A stretch of 64,000 nt of DNA, taken from contig OZ024757.1 of the NCBI GenBank assembly GCA_964016885.1, positions 36,332,001-36,396,000 of the forward strand, given 5' to 3'. The translations under genes were made by a program, and so were the position numbers. Positions within the stretch are counted from its first letter, which is position 1. Every line of letters begins with the position of its first letter. Below the pieces are notes generated by a model. That model saw only the letters and a list, made by a program, of their open reading frames with translations. It was not told the DNA's origin and did not search any database. The stretch is from Eledone cirrhosa (Eukaryota). This document shows, one piece after another, positions 1,371 through 62,352 of the stretch.

Positions 1371-1510
1371 ATGTATTCCGCACACCACCACAAAATGAAG
1401 AAACATCACAAGAAAGGCAGCAGCAGTAGTAGCAGCAGCAGTAGCAGCTCTGATGAAGAATTCAAGCACCTGCCAAAACATGAGCGCAAAATGCGGAAGA
1501 AAGCGAAAAA
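1371..1510 (+). CDS. First coding exon: MYSAHHHKMKKHHKKG-S11-DEEFKHLPKHERKMRKKAK (His/Lys-rich, poly-Ser/acidic, basic); ends in phase 2
   Basis: Acceptor tgtttgtcag ends at 1354; in-frame TGA at 1362-1364 precedes ATG 1371; Ser run uses mixed agc/agt/tct codons; donor gtaatt at 1511; phase 2 matches the exon at 14189. Too short for the ORF track. Confidence 0.75.
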
Positions 1511-1703
1511 AGTAATTATCAAATAGACTTAGTACTGAGAATTCCGAATTAATCATAAAACCATAACAATGACTATCATACTATCATACTAATTCCATAT
1601 AAGGAGAAAGAGACACAGAGAGAGAGAGTGAGAGACACTCACTTTGCTGAATCGATTTGTTGTCGTGTGGTAACGCTACCAGTGTTTTGGCTTCAGTATT
1701 GGA

Positions 1704-3886
1704 GGCTCTGGCACCCCCGTGTGGTATGTCAATCTGTGACACACTATAAGGCAGGCTCTGGCACCCCGTGTGGTATGTCAATCTGTGACACACTATAAGG
1801 CAGGCTCTGGCACCCCATGTATGTCAATCTGTGACACACTATAAGGCAGGCTCTGGCACCCCATGTGGTATGTCAATCTGTGACACACTATAAGGCAGGC
1901 TCTGGCACCCCCGTGTGGTATGTCAATCTGTGACACACTATAAGGCAGGCTCTGGCACCCCATGTGGTATGTCAATCTGTGACACACTATAAGGCAGGCT
2001 CTGGCACCCCATGTGGTATGTCAATCTGTGACACACTATAAGGCAGGCTCTGGCACCCCATGTGGTATGTCAATCTGTGACACTATCAGGCAGGCTCTGG
2101 CACCCCATGTGGTATGTCAATCTGTGACACACTATAAGGCAGGCTCTGGCACCCCATGTGATATGTCAATCTGTGGCACCCCATGTATGTCAATCTGTGA
2201 CACACTATAAGGCAGGCTCTGGCACCCCATGTGGTATGTCAATCTGTGACACACTATAAGGCAGGCTCTGGCACCCCATGTATGTCAATTTGTGACACTA
2301 TAAGGCAGGCTCTGGCACCCCATGTGATATGTCAATCTGTGACACACTATAAGGCAGGCTCTGGCATCCCATGTGGTATGTCAATCTGTGACACACTATA
2401 AGGCAGGCTCTGGCACCCCGTGTGGTATGTCAATCTGTGACACTATCAGGCAGGCTCTGGCACCCCATGTGGTATGTCAATCTGTGACACTATCAGGCAG
2501 GCTCTGGCACCCCATGTGGTATGTCAATCTGTGACACACTATAAGGCAGGCTCTGGCACCCCGTGTGGTATGTCAATCTGTGACGCACTATAAGGCAGGC
2601 TCTGGCACCCCATGTGGTATGTCAATCTGTGACACTATCAGGCAGGCTCTGGCACCCCATGTGGTATGTCAATCTGTGACACACTATAAGGCAGGCTCTG
2701 GCACCCCGTGTGGTATGTCAATCTGTGACGCACTATAAGGCAGGCTCTGGCACCCCATGTGGTATGTCAATCTGTGACACACTATAAGGCAGGCTCTGGC
2801 ACCCCGTGTGGTATGTCAATCTGTGACGCACTATAAGGCAGGCTCTGGCATCCCATGTGGTATGTCAATCTGTGACACACTATAAGGCAGGCTCTGGCAC
2901 CCCGTGTGGTATGTCAATCTGTGACGCACTATAAGGCAGGCTCTGGCACCCCATGTGGTATGTCAATCTGTGACGCACTATAAGGCAGGCTCTGGCACCC
3001 CATGTGGTATGTCAATCTGTGACGCACTATAAGGCAGGCTCTGGCACCCCATGTGGTATGTCAATCTGTGACACACTATAAGGCAGACTCTGGCACCCCG
3101 TGTGGTATGTCAATCTATGACACTATAAGGCATGCTCTGGCACCCCATGTGGTATGTCAATCTGTGACTATCAGGCAGGCTCTGGCACCCCATGTGGTAT
3201 GTCAATCTGTGACACACTATAAGGCAGGCTCTGGCACCCCGTGTGGTATGTCAATCTGTGACGCACTATAAGGCAGGCTCTGGCACCCCATGTGGTATGT
3301 CAATCTGTGACGCACTATAAGGCAGGCTCTGGCACCCCATGTGGTATGTCAATCTGTGACGCACTATAAGGCAGGCTCTGGCACCCCATGTGGTATGTCA
3401 ATCTGTGACACACTATAAGGCAGACTCTGGCACCCCGTGTGGTATGTCAATCTATGACACTATAAGGCATGCTCTGGCACCCCATGTGGTATGTCAATCT
3501 GTGACTATCAGGCAGGCTCTGGCACCCCATGTGGTATGTCAATCTGTGACGCACTATAAGGCAGGCTCTGGCACCCCATGTGATATGTCAATCTGTGGCA
3601 CCCCATGTATGTCAATCTGTGACACACTATAAGGCAGGCTCTGGCACCCCATGTGGTATGTCAATCTGTGACACACTATAAGGCAGGCTCTGGCACCCCA
3701 TGTATGTCAATTTGTGACACTATAAGGCAGGCTCTGGCACCCCATGTGGTATGTCAATCTGTGACACACTATAAGGCAGGCTCTGGCATCCCATGTGGTA
3801 TGTCAATCTGTGACACACTATAAGGCAGGCTCTGGCACCCCATGTATGTCAATTTGTGACACTATAAGGCAGGCTCTGGCACCCCT
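1704..3886. repeat. 49-bp tandem satellite, roughly 45 units (ggcaggctctggcaccccatgtggtatgtcaatctgtgacacactataa)
   Basis: Period of 49 read directly (aaggcagg at 1991 and 2040); small indel variants; higher-order block repeated at 3053 and 3390. Confidence 0.97.
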
Positions 3887-4032
3887 CATGGTGTGTCACA
3901 GATTGACCAACTCAACGTTTTATCACCACTGATACAATGGATAGATACAATTGCTGTCATGGAGTGCTGACATTGGTTTATCGAGATGTCACAACATAAC
4001 TCTTATGAATGAAACACTCTAATTAGCAACTA

Positions 4033-5646
4033 CAGTGGCGGACATGGAAGTAAGAACACTTTTTATTTTGCATGTAACTTTTTATTTTGCATGTAACTTT
4101 TTAGTTATTTTGTTTCTGTAACTTTGCAATATGCCAAAAGAAGGAGAAATAATTTCTCTATTGCTATCTCTGTTATTAAGCCAATTAGTAAAGCGAACCA
4201 GTTTTTATGGCTCATTAACGCAATTATAGCAAGATTTTGGCGGACGTGGAAGTAAGAACACTTTGCATTTCCTATGTTTACTTTCTTCATAGCTACTCTA
4301 GCAAATTTTAGATTTGTATAATAAAATATGATGTTATATATGACATTTTTCTTTTTTCCAGCATTTTATTATTATGGGGAGAAAAAGAGATTTGAGTCCT
4401 ACTAAACGGGCACGGATCGTCGAGTTGAGAAAGTTGAATTTTTCCTTCCGCGTGATTTCTAAGATGACAACATGCAGCTCCACTGCTTGTATTCAAGCCT
4501 GGCGCACTTGGGAACGTACAGGATCATACAAATCGAAGCCAAAACCAGGACCAAGTCGAAAAACGGATGATCGCCAGGATAGAGCGATTGGCCGGTTATC
4601 AGAAAATGACCGAAAAAAGACTGCTGTCGAGATCTGCTCCGAAGTGAACACTTCCCACAACTCGGATATCTCAGTCAGAACTGTCCGTCGTCGTCTGCGC
4701 GAAATCCGACTCAATGGTCGCATCGCCAGACGTGTTCCGCTCATCTCACTCGCCAACCGTCGCAAACGACTTGCATTCGCATACAAATATCTCGCATGGA
4801 CACCCGCTGATTGGCGCAAAGTCCTATTTTCAGATGAAAGTCTATTCACCATGGTCGGATCAGATGGCAAGACTTATGTCAGAAGGAGAACACACGAGGA
4901 ATTCGATGATCGGTGTTCTCAAAAAACGGTGAAACATGGTGGAAAATCGATCATGTTCTGGGGTGCATTTTCGGCTATGGGCACCGGTCTCCTTGTTCCC
5001 ATTTCCGGCAGTATGAACCAGAACACTTATGTCAAGATCCTGGAAGACCATTTGGAGCCCTATGTTGATGAAAATATGCCTTTAAATTGGCAATTTGTGC
5101 AAGACAATGCCCCGTGTCATTCTGCAAAGTCGGTTAAGCAATTTTTTCATGAGAAAAAATGGAAGGTCATCGATTGGCCTCCTCAATCGCCAGACTTAAA
5201 TTGTATAGTAAACCTGTGGCATTTAATAAAGCGCGAAATTCGACATCAAAACCCAAAAAACTTTCACGATCTGATGGCCACCATCAACCTGACATGGAAC
5301 AACTTCAGTTTGGACCAATGCATGAAATTAGTGGAAAGTATGCCTAGAAGATGTACTGCCGTGATCAAACAGAAAGGATATGCCACCAAATATTGATTTC
5401 GACCATAATTCGAGCATTAAATGAAATAAAATAAAAGTGTTCTTACTTCCATGTCCGCCAAAATGTGGCTATAATTGCGTTAACGAGTCATAAGAACTGG
5501 CCTATTTGACTAATTGGCTTAATAACAGAGATAGCGATAGAGAAATTATTTCTCTTTCTTTAGGTATATTGCAAAGTTGCAGAAACGAAATATCAAAAAA
5601 GTTACATGCAAAATAAAAAGTGTTCTTACTTCCATGTCCGCCACTG
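4033..5646 (+). mobile_element. Full-length Tc1-family DNA transposon with long IR/DR-type TIRs (4033-4264 and 5434-5646) and TA target duplication
   Basis: TA-cagtggcggacatggaagtaagaacacttt ... aaagtgttcttacttccatgtccgccactg-TA; each TIR carries an outer and an inner copy of the ~26-bp motif. Confidence 0.97.
4374..5396 (+). CDS. Tc1 transposase, 340 aa, uninterrupted ORF; catalytic triad reads D-D34-V rather than DD34E
   Basis: Paired-like HTH N-terminus, VLFSDES, TVKHGG, QDNAPCH, WPPQSPDLNCIVNLW, GYATKY end. Confidence 0.93.
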   Translation: MGRKRDLSPTKRARIVELRKLNFSFRVISKMTTCSSTACIQAWRTWERTGSYKSKPKPGPSRKTDDRQDRAIGRLSENDRKKTAVEICSEVNTSHNSDISVRTVRRRLREIRLNGRIARRVPLISLANRRKRLAFAYKYLAWTPADWRKVLFSDESLFTMVGSDGKTYVRRRTHEEFDDRCSQKTVKHGGKSIMFWGAFSAMGTGLLVPISGSMNQNTYVKILEDHLEPYVDENMPLNWQFVQDNAPCHSAKSVKQFFHEKKWKVIDWPPQSPDLNCIVNLWHLIKREIRHQNPKNFHDLMATINLTWNNFSLDQCMKLVESMPRRCTAVIKQKGYATKY

Positions 5647-5789
5647 TATATATATATAGTGAAATTCCGTTATAACAAAATTCACGGGGTATAAAAAAAA
5701 ATTTGTTGTAACAAAAAATTCTTTATAATGAGATTGACCTAACACATTCAGCGTGTGGCTGGGGATTGATTTTGTAAGATTTCTTATCT

Positions 5790-6760
5790 AAAAATGTGTG
5801 TTATACTTTGGGAGGGTCATGTTGCCAATAAAAATACACGCACCTATTGGTTTTCACTTCAATTTATCAATTTCCGGTTGCATGGTTGGTTTCATAAACG
5901 GAAGGTTGTTTATATATTGTCAAAGCTCTTTCGTCACACATTCTGTGACCTCCTCAGTGACTAGGTTTTTTATTTTGTGTCTCTCCTTTGTTCTGTCCTA
6001 CACTATCTTGTTCAAATAGAAGCCAACAAAATTGGACAAAGAGAAATCTGGAGGTGATGATCAAAGGATGGATTGCCGCCAACCAAAATAATTGCAGAGC
6101 CCTTGAAGAGCCATGGCTTTCTGAGGACTTGGGTGCAAATAGAGAGGAAAAGGAGAGAAATTGAGAGGGCCTATGTCCTCATAGTGCCACACATGTCCTT
6201 GCTAAACCGTGTTCTCAAGATGGAAGAAGACAGAAAAAAAAAGGAAGAAAATAAAAATATAAACACTAACCACAAAGGGTCTACGGAGACCAATAAGGAC
6301 TTGGAGATATCCACCACCACAGTCAAAGAATGCAGGCTGTGCAAACGACAGGTAAGCAGTAAAGGTGAGATGAGATATCAATATCCAAAGGAAAGTATCC
6401 AGGAAGAAAGGGACCAGTGGACAACTGTCCAAAGGATGAACAGAAAGTGCCGAGATACTGGGAGAAAGAAAACCCAGGTAACATGCAAGTTCAAGAATGG
6501 GACCTGGTGGCATGGAGAAACGGGGACAGGTTGTAGGTTCACTCACCCCTGGCCCCAAGTGAGCTACGCCCTGCCTACTCAGAAAAAATGCCCTAGCACA
6601 AACCAGAACTGATGCAAGCGGCCACAGAAGTATGCTGGTGCCACTCCAACAAAGAGAAGGCATGGATACATAGATGTAATACAGACGGCGGCAGCAGAGC
6701 AAAATAATTTTTTAGAAAAGGCAGAGAAAATTATGGGACAACTGACCAACCAGCACAGCA
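5790..6760 (+). mobile_element. 5' region and degenerate ORF1 (CCCH zinc-finger-like) of a probable non-LTR retrotransposon
   Basis: TCKF...G.GCRFTHP motif in ORF 6073..6612; segment 5790-6015 recurs inverted at ~28918-29138. Confidence 0.5.
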
Positions 6761-6761
6761 T

Positions 6762-7178
6762 CTCTCTACTGTGTCTTTCTTCTACTGGGATTTCTTCTTT
6801 ACCCAGCGGTCATCCTCCATGCGCATCACATGTCCATACCATCTCAGTCTTCTCACCTGCACACCACAACTTATACCCCTTATACCCAGTTTCTTTCTCA
6901 ACTCACCTATGCTTGGTCATTCACGCACATTGACATTGCACATCCAAAGGAGCATGCTTGCTTCATTTCTCTCCAGCCGTCACATATCCTCTGCAGTTGC
7001 TGCCCATATCTCACTACCATGCAACATCGCGCATCTCACATAGGCATCATATAACCATCCTTTCGTACGCAGGGAGAAACCCTTCTTAGTCAACAATGGA
7101 AGTAGCTCCCTAAACGTCTTACAACCGTCCTGTTTCTAGATACTTTGGCCTCGGAACCCCCACCACCTCCCACGCAAA
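6762..7178 (-). mobile_element. RTE-clade LINE ORF2 3' fragment
   Basis: Reverse complement matches the 16930-17340 part of the longer RTE copy (RLRWYGHVMRMEDDRWVK). Confidence 0.9.
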
Positions 7179-7214
7179 TATGTGTATGTATATATATATG
7201 TATATGTGTATATA

Positions 7215-7546
7215 TCATCATCATTTTACGTCTGCTTTTCCCTGCTTGCAAGGGTGGGACGAGAACTGATTCTGGCTTGATTTCTACAGCTGGATGCCCT
7301 TCCTAACACCAACTTCATTTACAATGAGTGCTGGGTGCTTTTTTGCCGTGGCACCTCCACGACCACTTTGCAGTGGAATGATATGGACCCCTGTCCCTAT
7401 CATCTCATTTCTACAGCTGAGTAAACTGGAGCAATGTGAAATAAAGTGTCTTGCTCAAGGAAACAACACATCACCCGGTCTGAGAATTGAACTCGCAACC
7501 TTTCGATTGCAAAGCCAATGCTCTAACCACTAAGCCATGTGCCTCC
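7215..7546 (-). mobile_element. tRNA-derived SINE (CORE-like body, (GAT)n tail)
   Basis: Head ggaggcacatggcttagtggttagagc...gagttcaattc with A/B boxes, cttgagcaagacactttatttcacattgctccag body; near-identical to 13211 and 24047 copies. Confidence 0.88.
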
Positions 7547-11346
<3,800 letters not shown>

Positions 11347-11495
11347 ATTATTTCTGAAGACGGCGTATATATGTGTTAGGTATGTATATTTAATCTTGAT
11401 AATTTGTATAATTTTGTATAATTTTGTACATAGATCTGTTGAATATGCATACCAATTATAACACATATATACCCTAGAAACGATCGTTAAATAGT
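11347..11495 (+). ncRNA. Type I hammerhead ribozyme motif with very long stem II
   Basis: Stem I attattt/aaatagt; CUGAAGA at 11354; stem II gtatatatgtgtta/taacacatatatac plus ggtatgtatatt/aatatgcatacc; GAAA-CGAUCG-UU with palindromic stem III; base of stem II has mismatches. Confidence 0.72.
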
Positions 11496-11682
11496 GAACT
11501 TTTTTTGCTTAATATAAGGAATTGTTTGTTCATTATTTGTTTAATATTTTATCTTGACTCTGTATACCGTTTATCTTTCACCGAAAGTGGATTTTCATTA
11601 CATCTCTTCTTTCCATGATATCCGGAATACATTGAGTTCTTCATACGGATTGGACACTACCGTAAACTCTTGGTAGATTTAT

Positions 11683-11705
11683 CTATATATGTATATATAT
11701 ATATG

Positions 11706-11752
<47 letters not shown>

Positions 11753-11813
11753 GTATATATATATGTATATATATATATATGTATATATATGTATATATAT
11801 ATATATGTATATG

Positions 11814-11844
<31 letters not shown>

Positions 11845-11847
11845 GTG

Positions 11848-11878
<31 letters not shown>

Positions 11879-11995
11879 GTATATATATGTATGTATATGT
11901 ATATATATGTATATATATATATGTATATATATGTATATATATATATATGTATGTATATGTATATATATGTATATATGTATATATGTATATATATG

Positions 11996-12026
<31 letters not shown>

Positions 12027-12165
12027 GTATATATGTATATATATATATATGTATATATATGTATATATATATATATGTATATATATGTATATATATATAT
12101 ATGTATATATATGTATATATATATATATGTATATATATGTATATATATATATATGTATATATATG

Positions 12166-12200
<35 letters not shown>

Positions 12201-12267
12201 GTATATATGTATATATATATATATATGTATATATGTATATATATATATATGTATGTATATATATATG

Positions 12268-12298
<31 letters not shown>

Positions 12299-12489
12299 GT
12301 GTATATATATGTATATGTATGTATATGTATATATATATATATGTATATATATGTATATATGTATATATATGTATATATGTATATATATGTATATATATGT
12401 ATATATATATATATATGTATATATATGTATATATATATATATGTATATATATGTATATATATATATATGTATATATATGTATGTATATG

Positions 12490-12524
<35 letters not shown>

Positions 12525-12555
12525 GTATATATGTATATATATATATGTATATATG

Positions 12556-12587
<32 letters not shown>

Positions 12588-12631
12588 TGTATATGTATAT
12601 ATGTATATATATATATGTATATATATATATG

Positions 12632-12727
<96 letters not shown>

Positions 12728-12760
12728 TATGTATATATATGTATGTATATATATATATGT

Positions 12761-12801
<41 letters not shown>

Positions 12802-12893
12802 TATGTATATATATATATGTATATATATATATGTATGTATATATATATATGTATATATATGTATATATATATATATGTATGTATATATATATG
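11683..12893. repeat. (AT)n/(ATATGT)n microsatellite, ~1.2 kb
   Basis: Read directly. Confidence 0.98.
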
Positions 12894-12988
12894 TGTTTTC
12901 TCTTTCTCTTAATTTCGAGTATATTTTTTTGACCGGCCACCCTCCTGGTGGCAAGGTTGTAAAAGAAAAGAAATTGTCATCCCTTGAA

Positions 12989-13188
12989 NNNNNNNNNNNN
13001 NNNNNNNNNNNNNNNNNNNNNNNNNNNNNNNNNNNNNNNNNNNNNNNNNNNNNNNNNNNNNNNNNNNNNNNNNNNNNNNNNNNNNNNNNNNNNNNNNNNN
13101 NNNNNNNNNNNNNNNNNNNNNNNNNNNNNNNNNNNNNNNNNNNNNNNNNNNNNNNNNNNNNNNNNNNNNNNNNNNNNNNNNNNNNNNN
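12989..13188. other. Assembly gap, 200 N
   Basis: Run of N; the round length suggests a placeholder of unknown true size. Confidence 1.
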
Positions 13189-13210
13189 TTCGTATATATA
13201 TATATATATA

Positions 13211-13600
13211 TGGAGGCACATGGCTTATTGGTTAGAGCATTGGCCTTGCAATCGAAAGGTTGTGAGTTCAATTCTTAGACCGGGCGATGTGTTGTTTCCT
13301 TGAGCAAGACACTTTATTTCACATTGCTCCAGTTTACTCAGCTGTAGAAATGAGATGATAGGGACTGGGGTCCCTATCATTCCACTGCAAAGTGGCCGTG
13401 GAGGTGCCATGGCAAAAAAAGTACCCAGCCCACACTGTAAAGTGGACGTGTAGGCGCCACAGAAAAACAAAGCACCCAGCACTCACTGTAAATGAGGTTG
13501 GTGTTAGGAAGGGCATCCAGCTGTAGGTATCAAGCCAGAATCAGTTCCCGTCCCACCCTTGCAAGCAGGGAAAAGCGGACATAAAATGATGATGATGATG
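13211..13600 (+). mobile_element. tRNA-derived SINE, same family as 7215-7546
   Basis: A/B-box head, CORE-like body, ggttggtgttaggaagggcatccagc segment, (GAT)n tail. Confidence 0.88.
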
Positions 13601-13974
13601 ATATATATAAATAATCTACATGATAAATGCACTCGGTACATGCTGTAAAGTGGTTGGTAATAGGAAGGACATCCAGCTATAGAAAGCTTGTCAAATGAAG
13701 GACATGACAACCTCTCCTGTGCATTCAGAACATGAGACCATACATCAGTGGGTCTGTTTCAGTACTGTCTTAATAGCAGAGAAAGCCCACTTTGAGATAA
13801 TGACGAGGAAAGTTTACTTTATGATTCCTGTTCAGGCTTTACCAAGGATTTTGCTTCATTTTCTCTCACTCACACTCCACCCAGTCACACTTAACATATC
13901 TAGAATTAAAGTTTTACTTTCACTCAAAGAACACTCACACTCAACATAGTTAGAATCAATAAAGTTTTACTTTC

Positions 13975-14160
13975 ACTCTCGTAGCTGCTCTCACTCTTGT
14001 AACCGCTCTCATTCTCATAACCGCTCTCACTCTCATAACCGCTCTCACTCTTGTAACCACTCTCACAACTGCTCTCACTCTCATAACTGCTCTCACTCTT
14101 GTAACTGCTCTCACTCTTGTAACCACTCTCATTCTCATAACTGCTCTCACCTCACAACTC
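13975..14160. repeat. 18-bp minisatellite (ctctcactcttgtaaccg-like), ~10 units, just upstream of the 14189 acceptor
   Basis: Read directly. Confidence 0.85.
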
Positions 14161-14188
14161 ATCCTGTTTCCTCTGTCTCTATTTCTAG

Positions 14189-14232
14189 CTGGAAGCTACG
14201 CCCTGGTCAACCAGCTTATGGAGCTAGTCAAG
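14189..14232 (+). CDS. 44-nt coding exon (N)WKLRPGQPAYGASQ(G), phase 2 to 1
   Basis: Polypyrimidine tract plus tttctag acceptor and ag/gtaatg donor; bridges the phase-2 end of the first exon to the phase-1 start of the GYPPQQ exon with no stop. Confidence 0.75.
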
Positions 14233-14990
14233 GTAATGAAAAACACTTATTATTTCCAAATCAAGAATTTAGAGGGATTTAGTAATATAACTTTCCCATT
14301 ATTTACTGTATGTACTTGAATATAAGCTAAGGAATATGTAACCCCCAAAAATCGATGGTGAAAGGAGGGGGGGGGGGTGACTTATATTCGGTCAATATTT
14401 TGATGATTTTCACCAACTACAAATTCTATGTAAACAAGGTTTGGATATTTGACCATTTCTCAGACATGAGATAGTGAGGTCAGCTTATATTTGAATATAT
14501 ATGGTAAGCTGGTTGGAACATAATTTAACAAAGGTTCTTACATAAAATTATGGTATGTATTTAGATAAAGTATACACACTTAAACCCTTTTATTACCATA
14601 TTTCTAATGAAAGAAACTTCCCATGATTTTCAAATCATTTTGAAAATAATCTTGAATTTTGATAACCTTTGATCTGAAGTGTTATTGCAATTACCCTCCA
14701 GCTTGTACCAGCTTCGATTGTGGCATTGTTCGACATAGGTTAGATGAGATTTTCTGATGCAGGTGTTTAATTGCCTGACATACTTTATTCTAAATCTCTT
14801 GTATTCTGCTGACATAAACAAATGTCACATGTTTTATAAATAGTGTTGATGTGAAGTATCACATTACATGTCGATACCAGTGCATCCTTCTCTCCTACAT
14901 GCCAATACCAGTGCATCCTTCTCTCTTACATGCCACATATAGCCAATTTAATCTTTCAGTTCATTCATACTTTGTTGTTGTATTTTGCAG

Positions 14991-15167
14991 GTTACCCACC
15001 CCAACAACAGCAACCAGGCTACCATCCCCAACAACCTGGTTACCCACCCCAACAACAAGCTGGCTACCCACCACAACAGTCATCTATGTATCCCTCACAA
15101 CAACAACCAGGTTATCCACCCCAACAACCTGGTTACCCACCGCAACAACCAGGCTACCCACCCTCTG
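14991..15167 (+). CDS. 177-nt exon of GYPPQQ(Q)P repeats (annexin A7/A11-like low-complexity region), phase 1-1
   Basis: ttttgcag acceptor, g/gtaagt donor, length divisible by 3, synonymous variation among repeats; lies inside ORF 14930..15193. Confidence 0.9.
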
Positions 15168-19214: not shown

Positions 19215-20020
19215 GGCGGCTTAGAACAAATGTCCTCCATAGTGTCAACATGGTCTCTTGTCTGGAAAGTCCTCAAGATCCAGCCAGCGAGTCGTCTGCA
19301 CATTGTCGCCACTTTCATGATGTGTGAGGAAAAAGATGCATTGTCGCCCAGGTCTCGTATCGATTCCGACCCGGGAATATCGGTCCCTCCTTGTACTTTA
19401 TTTGTGTTTGCAGGTTTATATTGTAGGGATTGGAATTTGCCAGCATTAAACTGCATGTTGCTGTCTTCCGCCCATTTGTATATGGCATCCAGATCTTGTT
19501 GTAAGCCGGGTTTTTGATTGCCAATGATACCTTAGTGTCATCAGCATAGCTAGTGAGGGATGTTGTATGTACTACAGAGCACATATCTGAAAGAGCCGCC
19601 AAAAACAGTACTGGTCCCAGGACTGTGCCTTGAGCCAACCCACTTGTTATTGATGTTTCCTTTGAGAGGGCGCCGTTTGCTGCGACTGTCTGGCTTCTGT
19701 CCTTTAAGAAGTCATGCAGCCACTCACCTACTTTTCCAGTTATGCCGAGTCCCTGTAGTTTGTGACATGTCATTCCATGGTCAACCTTGTCAAAGGCCTT
19801 CGCAAAGTCAAGATATATCATGTCCACATGTGCGCTGTCTAGCAGTTGTTTCAGTACCCAGTTGTAGTGATGTAGCAGCTGTGTAACGCAGCTTCTTCCT
19901 GGGCGAAAGCTATGCTGCGTGATAGTCAGGCGATCATTTTCCTCGAGGAAAGTGATCAGTTTCTTTCTGATGATTTGCTCCATGACCTTACTGATATGTA
20001 ATGTCAGGGAGACTGATCTA
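19215..20020 (-). mobile_element. CR1/L2-group LINE reverse transcriptase fragment, decayed
   Basis: [54 protein letters not shown]. Confidence 0.9.
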
Positions 20021-20038
20021 TATTTCTTTTTTTTTTAT

Positions 20039-20334
20039 GTATATATATATGTATATATGTATTTATGTATTATGATAATTTGTATATATGTATGTATATA
20101 TGTATATTTGTATATATGTATGCATATATATATAAATGTATGTATATATATATATTTGTATATATGTATGCATATATATATGTGTATATGTATGTATATA
20201 TATATATATGTATATATGTATGTATATCTATGTATATATATATATATGTGTATATATATATGTATGTATATATATATATATATATGTATGTATATATATA
20301 TATATATGTATGTATATATATATATATATGTATG

Positions 20335-20369
<35 letters not shown>

Positions 20370-20370
20370 G

Positions 20371-20413
<43 letters not shown>

Positions 20414-20452
20414 GTGTATATGTATATATATATGTATATGTATATATGTATG

Positions 20453-20485
<33 letters not shown>

Positions 20486-20634
20486 ATGTATATATATGTA
20501 TGTATATGTATATATATGTATGTATATGTATATATATATATATATGTATGTATATGTATATATATATATATATGTATATGTATGTATATATATATATATA
20601 TGTATGTATATGTATATATATATGTATATGTATG

Positions 20635-20665
<31 letters not shown>

Positions 20666-20736
20666 ATATATATATATATATATGTATGTATATATATATA
20701 TATATATATGTATGTATATATATATATATATATATG

Positions 20737-20777
<41 letters not shown>

Positions 20778-20984
20778 ATATATACTGTAAATGTGGTTGG
20801 TGTTAGGAAGGGCATCCAACTGTAGAAAACCTGCCAGACAGTCCTATGCGAGCAAGACAATCACTCTTGCCTCAAGTGGGACTACCCCCGTCCAAACCCA
20901 TGCAAGCGTGGAACACGGACGTTAAACGTTGATGATGATGATGATATGTATATATATATGTATGTATATATGTATGTATATATG

Positions 20985-21066
<82 letters not shown>

Positions 21067-21098
21067 TATGTATGTATGAATATATATATATATGTATG

Positions 21099-21132
<34 letters not shown>

Positions 21133-21232
21133 TGTATGTATGTATGTATATGTATGTATGTATATATATGTATGTATGAATATATATGTATGTATGAATA
21201 TATATGTATGTATGAATATATATGTATGTATG

Positions 21233-21265
<33 letters not shown>

Positions 21266-21280
21266 GAATATATATGTATG

Positions 21281-21341
<61 letters not shown>

Positions 21342-21444
21342 ATATATATGTATGTATGTATATGTATATGAATGTATATATATGTATATATGTATGTATG
21401 TGTATATATGTATATATATATATATGTATGTATGTGTATATATG

Positions 21445-21475
<31 letters not shown>

Positions 21476-21484
21476 GTATATATG

Positions 21485-21515
<31 letters not shown>

Positions 21516-21606
21516 ATATATATGTATGTATATATGTATGTATATGTATGTATATATATGTATGTATGTATATATATATATATATGTATGTATATATATA
21601 TGTATG

Positions 21607-21639
<33 letters not shown>

Positions 21640-21903
21640 ATATGTATGTATATATATGTGTGTATATGTATGTATATATATATATATATGTGTGTGTATA
21701 TGTATGTATATATATATATATATGTGTGTGTATATATATGTATGTATATATATATATGTGTATATGTATATATGTATGTATATGTATATATGTATGTATA
21801 TATATATATAAATATGTGTATATGTATATATGTATGTATATATATATATATGTGTGTGTATGTATATATATATATATATAAATATGTGTATATGTATATA
21901 TGT

Positions 21904-21941
<38 letters not shown>

Positions 21942-22654
21942 ATGTATATATATGTGTGTATATGTATATATGTATGTATATATATATGTGTGTGTATGTA
22001 TATATGTGTGTATATATATATATATGTATATATATATGTATGTATATATATATGTATGTGTATATATATGTGTATATATATATATGTATGTGTATATATA
22101 TATATGTATGTATATATATATGTATGTATATATATATGTGTGTATATATATGTATGTATATATATATGTGTATATATATATGTATGTATATATATATATA
22201 TATATGTGTGTATATATATATATATGTGTGTATATATATATGTGTGTATATATATATGTGTGTATATATATATGTGTGTATATATATATATGTGTGTATA
22301 TATATATATGTGTGTATATATATATGTGTGTATATATATATATGTGTGTGTATATATATATGTGTGTATATATATATGTGTGTATATATATGTATGTATA
22401 TATATATGTGCGTGTATATATATGTATATATATATATATATGTGTATATATATATATGTATGTATATATATATGTATGTATATATATATATATATGTGTG
22501 TATATATATGTATATATATATATATATATGTGTATATATGTATATGTATGTGTATGTATATATATATGTATGTATATATGTATGTATGTATATATATATA
22601 TATGTATGTATATATATATGTATGCATATATATATATATATGTGTGTATATATA

Positions 22655-22693
<39 letters not shown>

Positions 22694-36040: not shown

Positions 36041-36054
36041 GTTACCCACATTAA
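36041..36054 (+). CDS. Putative terminal coding exon (G)YPH-stop followed by an AT-rich 3' UTR
   Basis: Long pyrimidine tract (~35920-36040) ending ccctacag; phase-1 start reads gt tac cca cat taa, continuing the GYP motif; AATAAA at 36307 and 36991. Confidence 0.65.
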
Positions 36055-40429: not shown

Positions 40430-41283
40430 CGAGGTGTGTCAGAAAAGTTCCAGGACTGATGTCACAAAAGATTTATTTCAAACCCAAACTCCACACTAAG
40501 AGTTTTCTCCTTCAAAGTAATCCTCCTGGAGTCTAATGCACTTTTCCATCCTTTTCTGCCACGCTTGCATGCACTCCTGGAAGGATTCTTCCGGGATCCT
40601 CCACAGTTCCGTCGTCGCGGCCTTTTTGATGTCGTCCATGTCTTCAAAACAGGTCCCCACCAGGTCGTACTCGGTGATCCATGACTCATCACCTAGCAAG
40701 TCTGGTTTGGTTTCAAGACGCTCGAGGATGTCTTGGCACACTTGCATGCGTCGACTCTTCTGGTCATCATCGTTCAGCAGTTTTGGCACCATCTTCGCGC
40801 AGACTTTCCGCATGTCCAAATCTTCAGTGAGAATCTTCCAGACGCTGTCCCAATTCATGCCCAGCTCATTTGCCATCAGTCGAACAGTGATGCGCTCAGC
40901 GTTGACCTTAGTCCTGGTTGTTGCGGGCCTTCCGCTCCTGAGGTCATCTTCCACGTCATCGTGTCCTTCTTTAAACCTCTTGCACCACTCAAAAACACGT
41001 GAGCGTGACATCGTCTCATCTCCATACACTTGCTGCAGCAATCCCAGTGCTTCTGACGGAGTTTTCAAGTTTGTTCGTTGCTCTGTGCTCATTGTTTGAC
41101 GACCTGAAACAGAGGGCATGTATATAAAATTATGAAGAAAAAAGTTTGATCGCCTGAGAGAGCTAAGATTACAGTTACATACTCCAGGGGGATTACTTTG
41201 AAGGAGAAAACTCTTAGTGTGAAGTTTGGGTTTGAAATAAATCTTTTGTGACATCAGTCCTGGAACTTTTCTGACCCACCTCG
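40430..41283 (-). mobile_element. Internally deleted mariner element with ~100-bp TIRs and TA duplication; residual ORF 41092-40496
   Basis: TA-cgaggtgtgtcagaaaagttcc ... ggaactttttctgacccacctcg-TA; MSRSRVFEWCKRFKEG, RSGRP, KMVPKLL, GDESW, DYFEG motifs. Confidence 0.93.
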
Positions 41284-41761
41284 TATTTGTGTATATATAT
41301 ATGTGTATCTCTCTAGATGTATATACATGCACCTTTGATGAGTTGTAGTGCACCTGAGCACTGTACACAATAATTTCATTATTATTATTATATATATAAA
41401 TGTATATATATAGATGTATATATATGTGTATATATATAGATGTATATATAGATGTAAATATATATATGTGTATATATATATAGATGTAAATATATATATG
41501 TGTATATATGTATAGAGATGTAAACATATGCATGTATATATATATATGTATAGATGTATATATATGTATAGATGTATAATTATCTATAGATGTATATATA
41601 TATGTATATAGATGTATATGTATAGATGTGTGTATATATATGTGTAATAATGTATAGATGTATATATATATATATATATGTGTGTATATGTATAGATGTG
41701 TATATATATATATGTATACACATGCATATGTATGTATATACATGTATATATATGTATATAT

Positions 41762-42050
41762 CTTCATCATTTTACGTCCGCTTTTCCATGCTTGCAAGGG
41801 TGGGTTGGGTCTTATTCAGCACAGCATCTCTCCACTTGTCACGGTCCTTCGTCATCTCCACCGTGAGCTTCAGCGATCTGAGGTCTGTTCTCACCACCTC
41901 CGCCCATGTTTTTCGTGGTCTTCCTTCAACTGGCATTTCCTGGCACTTCTTCACCCATCGGTCATCCTCCATGCGCATCACATGTCCATACCACCTCAGT
42001 CTCCTCTCCCGTACACTACATTCTATCCCTCTTAGACACAGTTTCTCTTT
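41762..42050 (-). mobile_element. RTE LINE 3' end
   Basis: RERRLRWYGHVMRMEDDRWVKKC and (GAT)n tail. Confidence 0.9.
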
Positions 42051-42199
42051 GGACATCCTGCAGGACGAAAAACAAAACCTGTCAAAGGGCAAAGGAGCTC
42101 TTAAGAGTCAATGGCCATCCAAAATCTCCGGGAGAGATGACCCCTTAGCCTTTGTCAAGGCAGAATTCTAGAAGGAACGTAAAACAGTGATGATGATGA

Positions 42200-42216
42200 T
42201 ATATATATATAGATTG

Positions 42217-42247
<31 letters not shown>

Positions 42248-42636
42248 ATATATATATATGTGTGTATATATATATATATATGTATATATATATGTGTTTA
42301 TATATATATATATATATATATGTGTTTATATATATATATATATATGTGTTTATATATATATATATATGTGTATATATATATGTGTATATATATATATATG
42401 TGTATATATATATATATATATGTGTATATATGTATATATATATATGTGTGTATATATATATATATATATGTGTGTATATATATATATGTGTATATATATA
42501 TATATATATGTGTGTATATATATATATGTGTATATATATATATATATATGTGTGTATATATATATATATGTGTATATATATATATATATATATGTGTATA
42601 TATATATATATATATATGTGTATATATATATATATA

Positions 42637-42687
<51 letters not shown>

Positions 42688-43111
42688 ATATATATATATA
42701 TGTGTGTATATATATATATGTGTATATATATATGTGTATATATATATATGTGTATATATATATGTGTATATATATGTATATATATATATATATGTGTATA
42801 TATATGTATATATATATATATATGTGTATATATATGTATATATGTGTATATATATGTATATATATATGTATATATATATATATATGTGTATATATATGTA
42901 TATATATATGTGTATATATATATATATGTATATATATATATGTGTATATATATATATGTATATATATGTGTGTATATATATATGTGTGTATATATATATG
43001 TATATATATATGTGTGTATATATATATATATATATGTGTGTATATATATGTGTGTATATATATATATATATATGTGTATATATATGTATATATATATATG
43101 TGTATATATAT

Positions 43112-43145
<34 letters not shown>

Positions 43146-43162
43146 ATGTGTATATATATGTG

Positions 43163-43199
<37 letters not shown>

Positions 43200-43251
43200 G
43201 TATATATATATATGTATATATATATATATGTGTGTGTATGTATATATATAC
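42200..43251. repeat. (AT)n/(ATATGTGT)n microsatellite
   Basis: Read directly. Confidence 0.97.
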
Positions 43252-51993: not shown

Positions 51994-52026
<33 letters not shown>

Positions 52027-52108: not shown

Positions 52109-52146
<38 letters not shown>

Positions 52147-52700: not shown

Positions 52701-52725
52701 TAATTATCTTATGTTGTTTATTACA

Positions 52726-52774
<49 letters not shown>

Positions 52775-52789
52775 ACATATGTGTATATA

Positions 52790-53834: not shown

Positions 53835-56800
53835 TATGTATATATATATATGTCTGTGTATATATTGGAATCTAGCAACTTGTGTTTCTCTAATTATTAG
53901 GTATGGTGTCGCAAGAGCTTGTAGTATAACACTAAACTACGACTGTTATGTTTAATCTGGTTGTTGCTTCAATGTCCCACTAGAATGGTGGCTGCAGTTG
54001 ATAATGTTGAAAAAATACCACACAGTATTGTTGAAATAACAACTGCTGTATTCTTATGCTTAACTACTTGAAACCCGTTCTATGGTATTAAAGTGTTTGT
54101 ATTTATCTAAAAAGGTGGCAAATTTTCAGACTTGTTTGAACGTCAGATAGAATGCTATGTTGTATTCGTTTCGGCTCTCTGACTTCAAATCCCACTGATG
54201 TCAAATTTGCTTTTCCTCCATCCGAGGTTCAAACCGGCCAGAATTCTCTACCTCTTTCTGTTGAAACTGGCTGTAACTGGTCGTTCAAATTGATGTTAAG
54301 GTATTGTTCTCAAAATAAATACTTTCAAAATATCATAGATTCGATATTATATGAGGTAAAGTCTTTACCATGAAAATACAATAGCATATATAGAGTAATG
54401 TGAATGCTAAAGGGTTAATATAAATGTACCAATCTAGTACTGGGGTTGATTCTTCCTCTATATCTCTTTCTCACTTCCATTCTCCCACTCTTTATCCTTC
54501 TCTGGAAGAAATCTGCTGTATTTCACCTGAAGAGGAGATGGACTCCACTAGGTTTAGAAATGTCAAGATGCCGCTCCTATGACACCCTCAGGAATTACAG
54601 GACAATGCATGCATTTATGTAAAAGCCTCCCATCATAATTTTATATAAGAAGCTTTATTATGTTCCAAACATTTATCACTTGAAACCTTTTTATGTTACA
54701 AAACTGTTTGTTTTAAATTGTTTGTATTTATCTAATAACCTTCCACCATCATTTTATTAAGGAACTTTTGTTAAGTTATGTTCGGAACACTAACTTAACC
54801 CTTTTAACATCAAACTACTTGAAACATGTTCTTTGGTACAAAACTATGTTTTAAAGTGTTTATATTTATCTAAAAACCTTCCATCATAATTTCATTCAGC
54901 TTAATAATGAGAAAGTTAAACTACTGAGTCCGCCCAAATTTTTTATTATTTTCTAACTCATTTGACAATCATCTCTTCTTCGTGTCTTGAGTTATCCCTC
55001 CATTGAAGCTGAAGCATTCATTTTGCATTTTCTAATGGCTAGAATATATGTGGCTTGCCACACCTGCATACTTATAGATTTTTTCAATAACTTGAGCAAT
55101 TGTGCCAACCCATTGTCAAATTAATAGTTGATCATCTGAGAAGCTAATAGGGTTTACAACGTCAAAGTCATCTAATTAAACTGATGGTCACTGCATGAAC
55201 TACTGCTTACTATGAGACAAGCAGGGTTTTATCAAAGCTTGCTCCTTTGGATACATATAGAGGCACCTTGTGTAGGATGTAAATCTTCACAATCATAAGC
55301 ATTATTTTTCATTAGAAATATGGTAAACGAAAGGGCTAAAGTGTTTTTATATTTATCTAAAAACCTTCCAGCATAATTTTATGTGAAAAACTTTAAGTTA
55401 TGCCCCTCACCACAACATGATAATGGTTCCTGATTTAGAAAATTATATTACTAAACACCTCCAAAATTATATTACTAAACACCTCCAAAATTATGATTAT
55501 TTTCAAAATTAATTGAAAATAATATGAAATGGTTTAGAGCGATGAATATTTTGTAAAATTGTAGAAATCTCAAACATGGAAATAGCTGTAAAACAGCCAG
55601 CTGCTATGATGATCATAGCAAAGGGTTGGGTTAAACAAAACCTCTTATGAATGGAAGAGTGGTCAAAGAAGGAGGAGAAAGAGGAAGAGAAAACTAAATG
55701 AATAGAGCATATAGCATATGTTGAGAGATGGGTGAGAGAGAGAAGGAAAGAAGGAATGAGTGATGGAGCATATATGTTGACATGGAAAATTAAGAATGGG
55801 ATAACAGTGGAGAAAGTAAAGTTGAACTCTAGTGTCGGAACCTCATCAGCTTCCTTCTAGCCTCATGATTTCGGATGGAAGTTGAAAATAATATGTGAGT
55901 GTGTTTAGTTAGAAAATACAGTAAGGAAAGGTTACCTTAGAGTATTGTAATTTTGCAGTGTTAAACACAAAACTTTCTATGGATTGTGCATGTATCTTAA
56001 ACAGTGTTAATTCCTAGTTGGTCAGAATTCTCGTCAAACTATTCAAATTTTCTCTTTCTACAGGCCTCTGCCCCACTCTATGGAAACATGCTACAGTGTT
56101 TCCCTATTCCACAGAAGACTAACCTCCTCTCTGATCTTGTCAACTACTCACCTATTGCTCTTGTCTCCAACATCTCAAAGGTAATCAAAGCACCACCACT
56201 ACTTCCACCAGAACCTTTCACTCTCTCTCTTCAGTGACTACCAGGATGCTTTCAGTAGAGCCAGATCTACCCGCCTCACAGGACTTACGCACCTCTGTCA
56301 TACATATGCTAATGGTATCTTGCCTTTACACAAGAACCTCTTAAATAAGATGTCTGTCTTTAGCTTTAGCATCCATTGATCTCTTGGGATTAAAAGCTTT
56401 TTTGTTACTTTTTGCCAACATTGCAGCAGCTGCAACTCTTCTTCTGTATAAATCAAGAATGTCTGTTTAGCACCTCTGGCTCTTCTACATTATCAATTCC
56501 ATATATATATATGTACTTCGATTTTGTATTTGTTTTGCAAGATTTATTATCTGAAAATGTATGTTGAAACAGATATTGTTATATTTTGGGCAGTGGATTG
56601 GCAGTATCAATAGAGGGTCTGACGCCATGCTTTGCAGCATAGAGTTACGGCCTTTTATGATCTGAGTTCAAATCCCGCTGAGGTTAACTTTGCCTTTCAT
56701 CCTTACGGGGTCGATAAAATAAAGTACCAGTAATGCACTGGGTAATTGCTGGCTTTGTGCCTAAAGTAGAAACAATTATTACTATATGTATGTATGTGTG

Positions 56801-57594
56801 TGTGTGTACACATATACATTATATATATATATATATATATTAGTTTTGCGAGGTTTTTGATATGAAATTGTGTGTCGAAACAAATATTGTTATACTTGGG
56901 GTGGGTCATATTTGTGTAATAATATTGCCAGAATTAATAACAGAACACACTCAAATAAATAAATAAATAAACGGGAGGAAACATAATAGCACCACTGACG
57001 ATGTTGCAGATGTGCAACGAAAGAACTTTGATAGACTATATATATGTGATTGTGTCTATATTGTATCTGTATTTTTGACCGTTGGTCAGTCAATGGTAAA
57101 CATTGAGGACTGAATAAATTAAATTAACCGATATAAAAGACACAGAAGCGAAAACCAACCAAACAGTGAGTGTGTTCTGTTATTAATTCTGGCAATATTA
57201 TTACACAAATATGACCCTCCCCATATATATATATATATATGCTACAGAGTATATTATAGAGATGATTTTGAAGTAAATTTAATGTAGATATAACTGTTTT
57301 TGAATTTGAAGCCTTAGCTGTGAAAAGAATGAAATGTGAAGTATAAACCCATTTAACCATATACAGAGAAATGAGATTATCCTGATGCATTTTTCACAAC
57401 TACTTCTATGATTTTAGTCCACATTTGTGATGCTGTTACAGCTGCATACAAACATCTTGGACTTTGTTGAAATGAAAAATATGTGGTTCTTCGACCAGAG
57501 CTTATCCCAATACATGACAATTCTTGGCTCAGTGCTTTCTACCTTTTGACTCTTTTTATCATTGCTATGTTGGCCTTTTTCTCTTCTGGAGCAT

Positions 57595-57742
57595 ACACAG
57601 AGTAACCAAACACACCTCTCTGACTTCTGAACTTGCTGCATACTGCCACTACCCAGAGTAACCAAACACACCTGTCTCTCTTCTGAACTTGCTGCATACT
57701 GCCACTACCCAGGGTAACCAAACACGCCAACCTGTCTCTCTT
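57595..57742. repeat. ~56-bp tandem repeat, about 2.5 copies
   Basis: cagagtaaccaaacacacc...ttctgaacttgctgcatactgccactacc repeated. Confidence 0.8.
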
Positions 57743-58421
57743 TTGCCAACTCTTCTTTATTCCATCTCCCAGATACTAAGCTAAATATTTTTCCTGACCA
57801 ACTCTCTGGAACTTTCTTTTTTGTCCTACAGATGCACCAATTGAACTATAAGTTATGTGGGCACAGGCTAATTGATAGCTAATTAATATTGATTTGATAC
57901 AAATTATATTCCAATTTAGTTAAGATTATTTTGGGAAAGCTGGTACAATTCTTGTCATCAACATCATACTCTATTTCCTTCCTATAAAAAAGGTGTTCTA
58001 ACCTTGAAATATAAAAGTGAAATCTGTTGTTTTGTTTTCCTTATTTAACTTTACTCTAGTTTTCAATCCTATATGTCTTGCATTGAACTAGCTTTCCCAA
58101 ATTAATCATAACTGCATATTTTACACTATTTCATATTCATAAACAAGGCACATTGCCTAATGGTTAGGCTTTTGGACTCATAGTCATATGGTTGTGGGTT
58201 TTGATTCCTGCACTGGACTGCATGCTGTATTTTTAAGAAAAAATACTTTATTTCCTGTGGAGCCTTCTACCAAGAGTTGTAACTGACAGACAGTATCAGC
58301 AATGGAAAGACCAATGGAAATATTGTTTCCTTGGTCTGATCTGATGATTAGCTTGTTTTGACATATAAACTATATAATTTCGTATTTCAATTTCGTTTTT
58401 TTTTTAAATTTCTCTGTTTAG

Positions 58422-58802
58422 GACCTTCCGGAAATGAAAGTTCTCCTTTCCCAGCTGGGTTTGTCATGCCAACAGGTGGTCAACCAGGCTACCCACCACA
58501 ACCAACAGGTGGCCAGCCAGGCTACCCTCCACAACCAACAGGCGGCCAGCCAGGCTACCCTCCACAACCAACAGGCGGACAGCCAGGCTACCCACCACAA
58601 CCAACAGGTGGACAGCCAGGCTACCCTCCACAACCAACAGGCAGCCAGCCAGGCTACCCTCCACAACCAACAGGCGGTCAACCAAATTACCCATCACAGC
58701 CAGGTTATCCACCATCTCAGTCAGTTGGTGGTGGCCAGCCAAGTTACGCACCTCAACCAGGCTACCCATCACAGCCATCTCAACCACACTATCCTTCAGC
58801 AA
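58422..58802 (+). CDS. ANXA7-like: 381-nt exon, annexin N-terminal low-complexity domain with 6 PTG(G/S)QPGYPPQ repeats plus degenerate copies, phase 1-1
   Basis: tctctgtttag acceptor, a/gtaaga donor; 33-nt repeat units differ mainly at third codon positions; inside ORF 58358..58849. Confidence 0.9.
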
Positions 58803-59320: not shown

Positions 59321-59481
59321 GAAGCCGAGGAATATGTGACCAAATAAATTGATGGTAAAATGGAGAGGGGGATGGTCAGCTTATACACGCCGGTTAAACA
59401 TAATGTCTTCATTAGCTGCCTTATAAATTTAGATTTTTTGTCCATTTCTCAGATATAAAATAGGTGGGGGAGGGGCGTATC

Positions 59482-59917
59482 GGTATATAACAGAATTATA
59501 TCACTGGGGTATATAACAGAATTATATCACTGGAGTATATAACAGAATTATATCACTGGGGGTATATAACAGAATTATATCACTGGGGTATATAACAGAA
59601 TTATATCACTGGGGTATATAACAGAATTATATCACTGGGGTATATAACAGAATTATATCACTGGGGTATATAACAGAATTATATCACTGGAGTATATAAC
59701 AGAATTATATCACTGGGGGTATATAACAGAATTATATCACTGGGGTATATAACAGAATTATATCACTGGAGTATATAACAGAATTATATCACTGGGGGTA
59801 TATAACAGAATTATATCACTGGGGTATATAACAGAATTATATCACTGGGGTATATAACAGAATTATATCACGGGTATATAACAATTATATCACCGGGGTA
59901 TATAACAGAATTATAAC
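59482..59917. repeat. 26-bp minisatellite (ggggtatataacagaattatatcact), ~16-17 units
   Basis: Period read directly (59482, 59508). Confidence 0.95.
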
Positions 59918-60209: not shown

Positions 60210-60232
60210 GCCCCTGCTCACAAATTAATAAA
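60210..60232 (+). CDS. ANXA7-like: 23-nt microexon (S)PCSQINK, phase 1 to 0
   Basis: T-rich tract plus tttcag acceptor, aa/gtaagt donor; supplies exactly the phase change needed between 58802 (phase 1) and 62214 (phase 0). Confidence 0.75.
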
Positions 60233-60301
60233 GTAAGTTGCACCAAGTTTTCTCTGTAATGATTTTTTTTCTGTTTGATATATGATGACGATGATGATAA
60301 A

Positions 60302-61503: not shown

Positions 61504-61506
61504 TAG

Positions 61507-61574
61507 AAATGACTTCTACATGACTAAAACTGTTTCATTCATATGAAACAGTTCTAGTCCTGTAGAAGTCATTT
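61507..61574. repeat. Palindrome of a hammerhead 3' half (27503 family)
   Basis: aaatgacttctacatgactaaaactgtttc attcatat gaaacagttctagtcctgtagaagtcattt. Confidence 0.85.
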
Positions 61575-61669
61575 TTGTATAAAATAAAAAATGCCTATAC
61601 TCTACCACTGTATTGAGTACCTGTTTTAACTGTGGCTACTCACCAACACAACTCGGGAATCTACATATT

Positions 61670-61920
61670 ATACATATATCTCTGAGAGGTGCAATTGGGC
61701 AATGTCGGCTTTTATCACTTCATCCCAGGTCTCCCTGGGTCTCCCCACTCCAAGGCTTCCAATGACTTTGAGTGCTCTACACTTTTTTATGCAGCTGTCA
61801 TCCTTCATACGCAATCTTCTCTCCTGCACACAGCATTTGATTCCTTTTATGCCTAATTTCTCTCTCATTTATGCTTCGCCGTTGTCGCATATTATTATTA
61901 CACATCCATTGGAGCGTGCA
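61670..61920 (-). mobile_element. RTE LINE 3' fragment
   Basis: REKLGIKGIKCCVQERRLR...GRPRETW. Confidence 0.8.
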
Positions 61921-62213
61921 CTATATGTTTAGTATAAATAAAGTACATTACATATAACTGTGTTGATTATCATTACATAACGTTATATGGATTTAATAAG
62001 CAACTGTAACTGTCTTCTCAATCCTGTTGGTGAAGAGCAAGAGGTGGATGACATATGAGAGAACATGATTGATACCATTAACTTTTCAAACCCATTTGAA
62101 AATTGATGCTATAATTTAAAGTTAAAGTTAAAATGTACTTTTTCTAACTGAAGGAAATTTTGAAACTTGTCTTATAAACACTAATGAAATTGTTTCATTT
62201 ATTTATTTTGTAG

Positions 62214-62352
62214 CCAAAGGCCCTGACTGATGACATGAGGAAAATGGCCATGTATGGTGGACACGAAAAATTCTGTCCTACTGTGGTACCTGCCAACCCT
62301 TTTTCTGCCGAGGAAGATGCTAAAGTGTTGCGAAAGGCTATGAAAGGATTCG
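62214..62352 (+). CDS. ANXA7-like: Annexin exon entering core repeat 1: PKALTDDMRKMAMYGGHEKFCPTVVPANPFSAEEDAKVLRKAMKGF(G); gene continues beyond the window
   Basis: ttttgtag acceptor, g/gtgggt donor; PTV.PA.PF.A..DA.VLRKAMKGFG is the diagnostic start of annexin repeat 1 in the A7/A11 type. Confidence 0.93.

Follow-up and report, generated by a model that had tools for sequence, protein, structure and literature searches.

Analysis of a 64,000-nt window of the Eledone cirrhosa genome (contig OZ024757.1, 36,332,001-36,396,000, forward strand; positions given below are those of the window) indicates that it probably holds a single annexin A7-like gene with two outcomes at one splice donor. The donor at 15167 is likely joined to a stop-containing last exon at 36041, and it is predicted to be joined also to a low-complexity exon at 58422 that leads into the annexin core. 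The first outcome would release the low-complexity tail as a free protein and the second would yield a long annexin. As stated in the initial annotation, made from the letters of the window, the exon ending at 15167 is phase 1, and the exons at 36041 and 58422 both start in phase 1 and complete a Gly codon.

The locus begins with a first coding exon of 47 amino acids (1371-1511, forward strand, as are all exons below), identified by its sequence, its genome match and a motif of mollusc annexins, and it ends with a phase-0 donor. The second visible coding exon (14189-14232) is Gly/Tyr/Pro/Gln-rich and is followed by the shared GYPPQQ-repeat exon with four PGYPP units (14991-15167), whose phase-1 donor, GTAAG, is the branch point. 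The alternative last exon (36041-36996) reads Gly-Tyr-Pro-His-stop, with the stop at 36052-36054, and continues into a 3' untranslated region (UTR). It carries AATAAA at 36307 and 36991, and its 3' end is approximate. A phase-1 Gly-Tyr-Pro after AG is found at only two of the 2180 AG sites in 15168-58421, and the second of them sits in sequence resembling a long interspersed nuclear element (LINE). The 60-nt pyrimidine tract upstream of 36041 ranks second among 1160 YAG sites, and a small weight matrix built from 12 other acceptors of the locus ranked 36041 at 69 and 58422 at 62 of 2180. Judged by its sequence, the 36041 acceptor is beyond chance occurrence. A Gly-Tyr-Pro match at 32437 was discarded, as it shows no exon features.

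Logan contigs of four runs (X1-X4), all from one study, contain words of the region 36041-37000. None of these runs is recorded as RNA, and X4 was taken as RNA solely because of its GT..AG joints, which are absent from X1-X3. X4 joins 14232 to 14991 over GT..AG in a contig with a depth of 460, and it holds a share of 0.93 of 94 sampled words of 36041-37000. One 1284-nt contig of X4 spans exon 14991-15167 without differences, and the match continues to 15169 before it departs. These two bases beyond 15167 mean that the next exon starts with GT, which is the start of exon 36041, while exon 58422 starts with GA. The same contig runs for 719 nt past 15167 and, if it lies in exon 36041, its projected end is 36759, which is 20-25 nt inside a dispersed palindromic repeat of the distal 3' UTR (36734-36995) that resembles a miniature inverted-repeat transposable element (MITE). 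This repeat has 83 matches with ~70-83% identity, most of them beginning between query positions 175 and 200 and in many cases found on both strands, and a contig break inside it is plausible. Three indirect signs, the GT start of the next exon, the projected contig end in the repeat and the X4 word share, agree on a joint from 15167 to the terminal exon 36041, and they make a core-less short transcript likely.

The stop at 36052-36054 precedes all core exons, so by its domains the predicted short product would not count as an annexin. The initial annotation had given it a length of 124 amino acids, which has to be corrected to at least 125, since the assembly lacks one exon and the RNA-like contig has an extra base in exon 2. 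This figure leaves out the residues of the missing exon, and exon 36041 contributes only four residues to the predicted protein.

The relationship of the 5' part of the locus to annexins emerged from the product of exon 1, which comprises a His/Lys-rich start, a poly-Ser stretch with an acidic patch, an HLPKHERK motif and a basic helix. This motif has one match in the genome and belongs to no Pfam family, and searches for homologs that used exon 1 or exon 62214 as a single sequence returned nothing. A full scan of cluster representatives revealed three unnamed sequences related to exon 1 (E 5e-5 to 8e-4); they look like single-exon calls that continue beyond a K-V in a similar place. A profile built from these three was used to score 7969 proteins, the search covering lengths of 145 amino acids or more. 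It returned ten proteins at E<=10, nine of them named mollusc annexins of 512-649 amino acids (E 1.3e-9 to 2.1e-5) from six genera, Ruditapes, Mercenaria, Sinanodonta, Mya, Dreissena and Haliotis. In these nine annexins the poly-Ser/HLPKH motif is at or near the N-terminus and is followed by a tail and then by the core. The tail is Gly/Tyr/Pro-rich in the six bivalve proteins; the three abalone orthologs (P0012, P0014 and P0021) keep the N-terminal motif and the core and carry a Glu/Lys-rich tail instead of Gly/Tyr/Pro repeats. An AlphaFold2 model of a clam ortholog (13-row alignment; mean predicted local distance difference test score, pLDDT, of 59) has a helix at residues 34-48 with pLDDT ~74, the only confident element of the tail, while residues 61-303 have pLDDT <50.

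We also compared six annexin loci of the genome with the mollusc proteins. The present locus showed the highest core identity for all six queries (54-65%, versus 46-51% for the next locus) and the highest summed score for five of the six. It shares a 14-aa linker insertion with the mollusc motif proteins, and the loci on C6, C14 and C21 are without it. By motif, core identity and linker insertion, sequence comparison places the locus as a member of the mollusc long-tail annexin A7-like group. The bivalve and abalone proteins of this group, named annexin A7-like or annexin-B12-like in the databases (e.g. XP_060553939.1, XP_053385340.1, XP_052790402.1 and XP_046350177.2), have the N-terminal poly-Ser/HLPKH motif and a long low-complexity tail, and they share with the locus the four-repeat core, the 14-aa linker insertion and a similar total length. 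Because the exon-1 motif and the annexin core sit in one protein in the mollusc orthologs, and because the core found here is, by identity, their closest match in the genome, the ancestral state was most likely one gene, a result that favours the single locus proposed at the outset. What sets the Eledone locus apart from the bivalve and abalone records is a last exon with a stop and a second route into the core. All the records found, at 145 amino acids or more, contain the core, and no short, core-less ortholog was found among them. No search that we ran returned a cephalopod ortholog, a metagenome scan gave 596 pattern matches of which none was confirmed, and atlas searches gave no usable match.

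The tail itself varies in bivalves. Clam isoforms X1 and X2 (record pairs P0006/P0016, P0007/P0017 and P0010/P0020) differ by an insert of 14-21 aa that begins at a GF[VL]-P landmark, and this part of the tail appears to be alternatively spliced in three bivalve genera.

The annexin part of the locus starts with the second low-complexity exon (58422-58802), which consists of TGGQPGYPPQP repeats with seven PGYPP units, contains an in-frame ATG at 58466 and carries a GFV-x-P landmark. It is followed by a 23-nt exon (60210-60232) and by the first annexin-core exon (62214-62352), the last one inside the window; eight further core exons lie past it, up to G000:C18:36413192. The joints 58802-60210-62214 are present at the loose end of an X4 contig. 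PF00191 matches were obtained on four core exons, and four annexin repeats are contained in one open frame. The predicted long form would have at least 603 amino acids plus the missing exon, compared with 613-652 for the motif-bearing bivalve proteins.

The initial annotation had reported no separate start for the annexin, and on this point our data disagree, since X4 splices an upstream exon ending at 56180 to 58422, in addition to the in-frame ATG at 58466. The 405-nt X4 contig across the 58422 acceptor has 284 upstream bases, the last 30 of which map to 56149-56178; beyond exon 56064-56180 it extends upstream by 169 more bases. The 3' end of this exon is given by the contig, and its 5' end is predicted from a strong acceptor at 56064 (rank 5 of 2180). 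In the annexin frame the exon is interrupted by a stop, it also has two out-of-frame ATGs, and it shows weak similarity to eight dispersed places (E 0.004-0.36), four of them with stops. It is likely an exonised piece of a decayed transposon, which we take to be LINE-like; it has no Pfam hit. The path through 56180 would be a minor cryptic or internal-start form that is poorly translated. A third out-of-frame ATG is found at 58434, before the one at 58466, from which the frame is open for 467 amino acids across 11 exons bounded by AG and GT, of which eight are outside the window. The 14 codons upstream of 58466 are also open and include the GFV landmark, which in its GFV-x-P form recurs in six of the nine bivalve proteins scanned, a weak sign that exon 58422 may be internal coding sequence.

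The donor and acceptor of a junction between 15167 and 58422 are compatible in phase, and it is orthology only that predicts this junction. Several observations weigh against the single-gene reading. The junction was not seen in the X4 contigs, which show presence and not absence, and the whole RNA-like support comes from one run of one study that is not recorded as RNA. The ATG at 58466 permits an independent annexin of 467 amino acids, and a Sinanodonta record (P0018) with the same locus tag as a motif-bearing one begins at an internal Met, without the motif; by analogy, this is a possible parallel to the 467-aa form. In addition, the exact PPYP core of a partner-binding motif considered below is absent from both low-complexity exons, which contain only the type 1-like PxYP. 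Graph simplification may drop a lower-coverage connection beside a high-coverage path. The X4 contigs are unbroken across both 15167 and 58422 and, according to their description, Logan contigs are the non-branching paths that remain once a graph has undergone SPAdes-like simplification, and every 31-mer in them is distinct (10.1101/2024.07.30.605881); the two transcripts are therefore unconnected at these points in X4 after simplification, which also counts against that reading. Because such contigs are simplified and lossy, the missing 15167-58422 contig does not exclude the junction. Arithmetic on X4 contig depths leaves ~10-17 for the 56180 path versus ~80 within exon 58422, a weak hint, as contig depths cannot rank gene parts, that a second entry into 58422 may have been pruned; the pattern fits a coverage ramp from a nearby 5' end equally well. 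The alternative-last-exon switch of the initial annotation thus has indirect support for its short transcript in X4, whereas its long junction was not seen and 56180-58422 was found instead. An independent annexin start together with the lack of the long junction had been put forward as an argument for two genes; we did find another entry via 56180 and no 15167-58422 contig, with the reservation just given for lossy contigs.

Some of these observations would fit gene fission, a possible but clearly less probable explanation, in which the ancestral long annexin has split in this lineage, so that the upstream promoter drives only a tail protein that ends at 36041, and a new internal start at about 55900-56180 drives the 467-aa annexin from the ATG at 58466. 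The unbroken X4 contigs at both branch points, the entry into 58422 from 56180 and the in-frame ATG are what this explanation expects. If unspliced, the contig would start at 55895, right after a dispersed repeat that ends at ~55877, and along the annexin transcript the depth climbs (27, then 81, then 151), which weakly suggests a 5' end close by. Against fission, 56064-56180 with its two out-of-frame ATGs, plus the third at 58434 before 58466, would make a poor leader, and the 14 open codons before 58466 carry the GFV landmark. The phases of 15167 and 58422 still fit, the long form would have the length of the orthologs, and contigs drop minor paths. An extension of fission, which we advance only tentatively, is that the ancestral annexin is expressed as separable modules, an abundant free tail encoded through a separate last exon and a core annexin that begins at a separate internal start, so that the gene would have been caught in the course of fission.

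Another explanation accepts one gene and considers the short transcript to result from premature polyadenylation and to have no function as a protein, its only effect being a lower output of the long annexin. We regard this as improbable. It would agree with a distal 3' UTR that lies within a dispersed repeat, with an exon that adds only four residues and with the lack of a short ortholog in a profile search of proteins of at least 145 amino acids. The exon has, however, a proper acceptor and a Gly-Tyr-Pro in frame with the repeats, its stop is in the terminal exon and hence would escape nonsense-mediated decay, and the short path is the one retained in the X4 contig. Two tandem genes, unrelated or partly duplicated, that share GYPPQ repeats would also explain the separate X4 contigs and had been the alternative in the initial annotation. 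This is very improbable and largely refuted by the ortholog motif and core identity, given that annexin orthologs from six mollusc genera contain the exon-1 motif. The DNA similarity score between exons 14991 and 58422 (52) was no higher than that of controls with synonymous codons, which reached it in 65 of 500 and 413 of 500 cases, and there is therefore no trace of duplication beyond composition.

Under the reading of a single gene with two outcomes at donor 15167, a proximal acceptor with its poly(A) site would compete with an acceptor 22 kb downstream, and the outcome would set the share of free tail versus tail tied to a core that binds Ca2+ and phospholipid. Annexins of the ANXA7/ANXA11 type use the disordered tail for partner binding and the core for membrane binding; their tails interact with sorcin, and ANXA11 acts as a granule tether. 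The free tail would retain the basic helix and four PGYPP units and may still interact with the partners of the long form (ALG-2-type penta-EF-hand proteins, condensates) while leaving them unattached to membranes, and it may compete with the long form for ALG-2-type partners. The initial annotation proposed that the short form could be a decoy or regulator, a role that is at present hypothetical. We counted PxYP units, of which there are four in exon 14991 and ten in exon 58422, with no PxPGF. The available part of PMC5037681 defines type 1 or type 1-like ligand motifs as PPYP, PYP or PxYP plus YP, and it classes PxYP-type units as ALG-2 type 1-like in ANXA7 and ANXA11. As a sequence motif, both low-complexity exons agree with the type 1-like definition.

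Vertebrate ANXA7 and ANXA11 resemble the locus in having a long Gly/Tyr/Pro/Gln-rich N-terminus with PGYPP units on an annexin core, as far as described in the accessible text of PMC5037681. The mollusc tail differs from them in opening with the poly-Ser/basic-helix motif, and the "A7" names are database labels. Alternative last exons are a common device, and switches of this kind, by an alternative last exon or intronic polyadenylation, produce secreted versus membrane immunoglobulin M (IgM) and soluble receptor decoys. As in these systems, the proximal terminal exon of the present locus would strip the membrane-attaching part and free an interaction domain; in contrast to them, the part removed here is a core that binds membranes peripherally and in a Ca2+-dependent manner, and a disordered domain is set free.

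A core-less N-terminal fragment of ANXA11 of ~22 kDa is known as a pathological product in type C frontotemporal lobar degeneration with TDP-43 pathology (FTLD-TDP), and in the available part of the report the authors leave its origin open (PMC11485244). Like the predicted short form, that fragment, as portrayed there, is a free core-less low-complexity domain of an annexin, whereas the core-less form of Eledone would come from a last exon of its own, in a presumably healthy animal. If true, production of the tail by itself would offer a natural experiment on the function of a free annexin tail in healthy cells, which is the question raised by the FTLD-TDP type C fragment (PMC11485244), and modular expression, if true, would be a physiological counterpart of the disease fragment. 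If the long junction is absent, the locus would be a clean case of gene fission. A further outcome is the description, in mollusc annexins, of a conserved N-terminal motif that had not been catalogued (poly-Ser/acidic patch plus basic helix). The long-tailed mollusc annexin A7-like group is already present in databases. The paper listings and abstract openings that were searched, which take in few subscription journals, contain neither an annexin isoform limited to the low-complexity tail nor the exon-1 motif, and the accessible text of PMC11431876 says nothing on isoforms.

The reading frame at the 5' end of the locus points to an incomplete assembly. Exon 14189-14232 has one base fewer in the assembly than in the X4 contig, which breaks the frame, and the DNA runs X1-X3 have no cover over 14150-14233; the missing base is either an assembly error or an allele. 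When exon 1 is joined directly to exon 2 as assembled, a stop follows after 59 amino acids. Because exon 1 ends in phase 0 and exon 2, at its X4 length, runs from phase 1 to phase 1, one more exon, of phase 0 to 1, is needed between them. The likely place for it is an assembly gap of 200 N (12989-13188); it was not found in the window, in 20 kb upstream or in the genome assembly, and 1512-14188 offered no convincing candidate. A one-base error in the A-run 1506-1511 would also cure the phase clash and was judged less likely, as the three unnamed relatives of exon 1 seem to break at phase 0. A direct join of exons 1 and 2 in an alternative open frame was rejected, since by eye the differences between repeats sit at third positions of the Gly-Tyr-Pro frame. 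Ahead of the start codon (1336-1361), a candidate acceptor consists of CAG followed immediately by GTAAG, an acceptor-plus-donor site that we take to be of the recursive-splicing type.

Other annexin loci of the genome include two genes that are apparently in tandem on C6 (G000:C6:31376000-31391500), one locus each on C14 and C21, and two on C27. The donor region of the 213-nt core exon occurs in at least three tandem copies that reach into the intron (L002 ~1640-1800), which creates duplicate donor sites. The introns within the window are rich in repeats. A Tc1-like transposon in the first intron (4031-5649) contains an open frame for a 340-aa transposase (4374-5396; PF01498 and PF13358) and inverted repeats of ~230 bp, and a Mariner-like element with terminal inverted repeats was recognised by eye at 40430-41280. 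Intron minisatellites are present as ~45-nt units at 1700-3900 and ~29-nt units at 59480-59900, and long TA arrays extend over ~7500-12900, 20000-24000 and 41400-43250.

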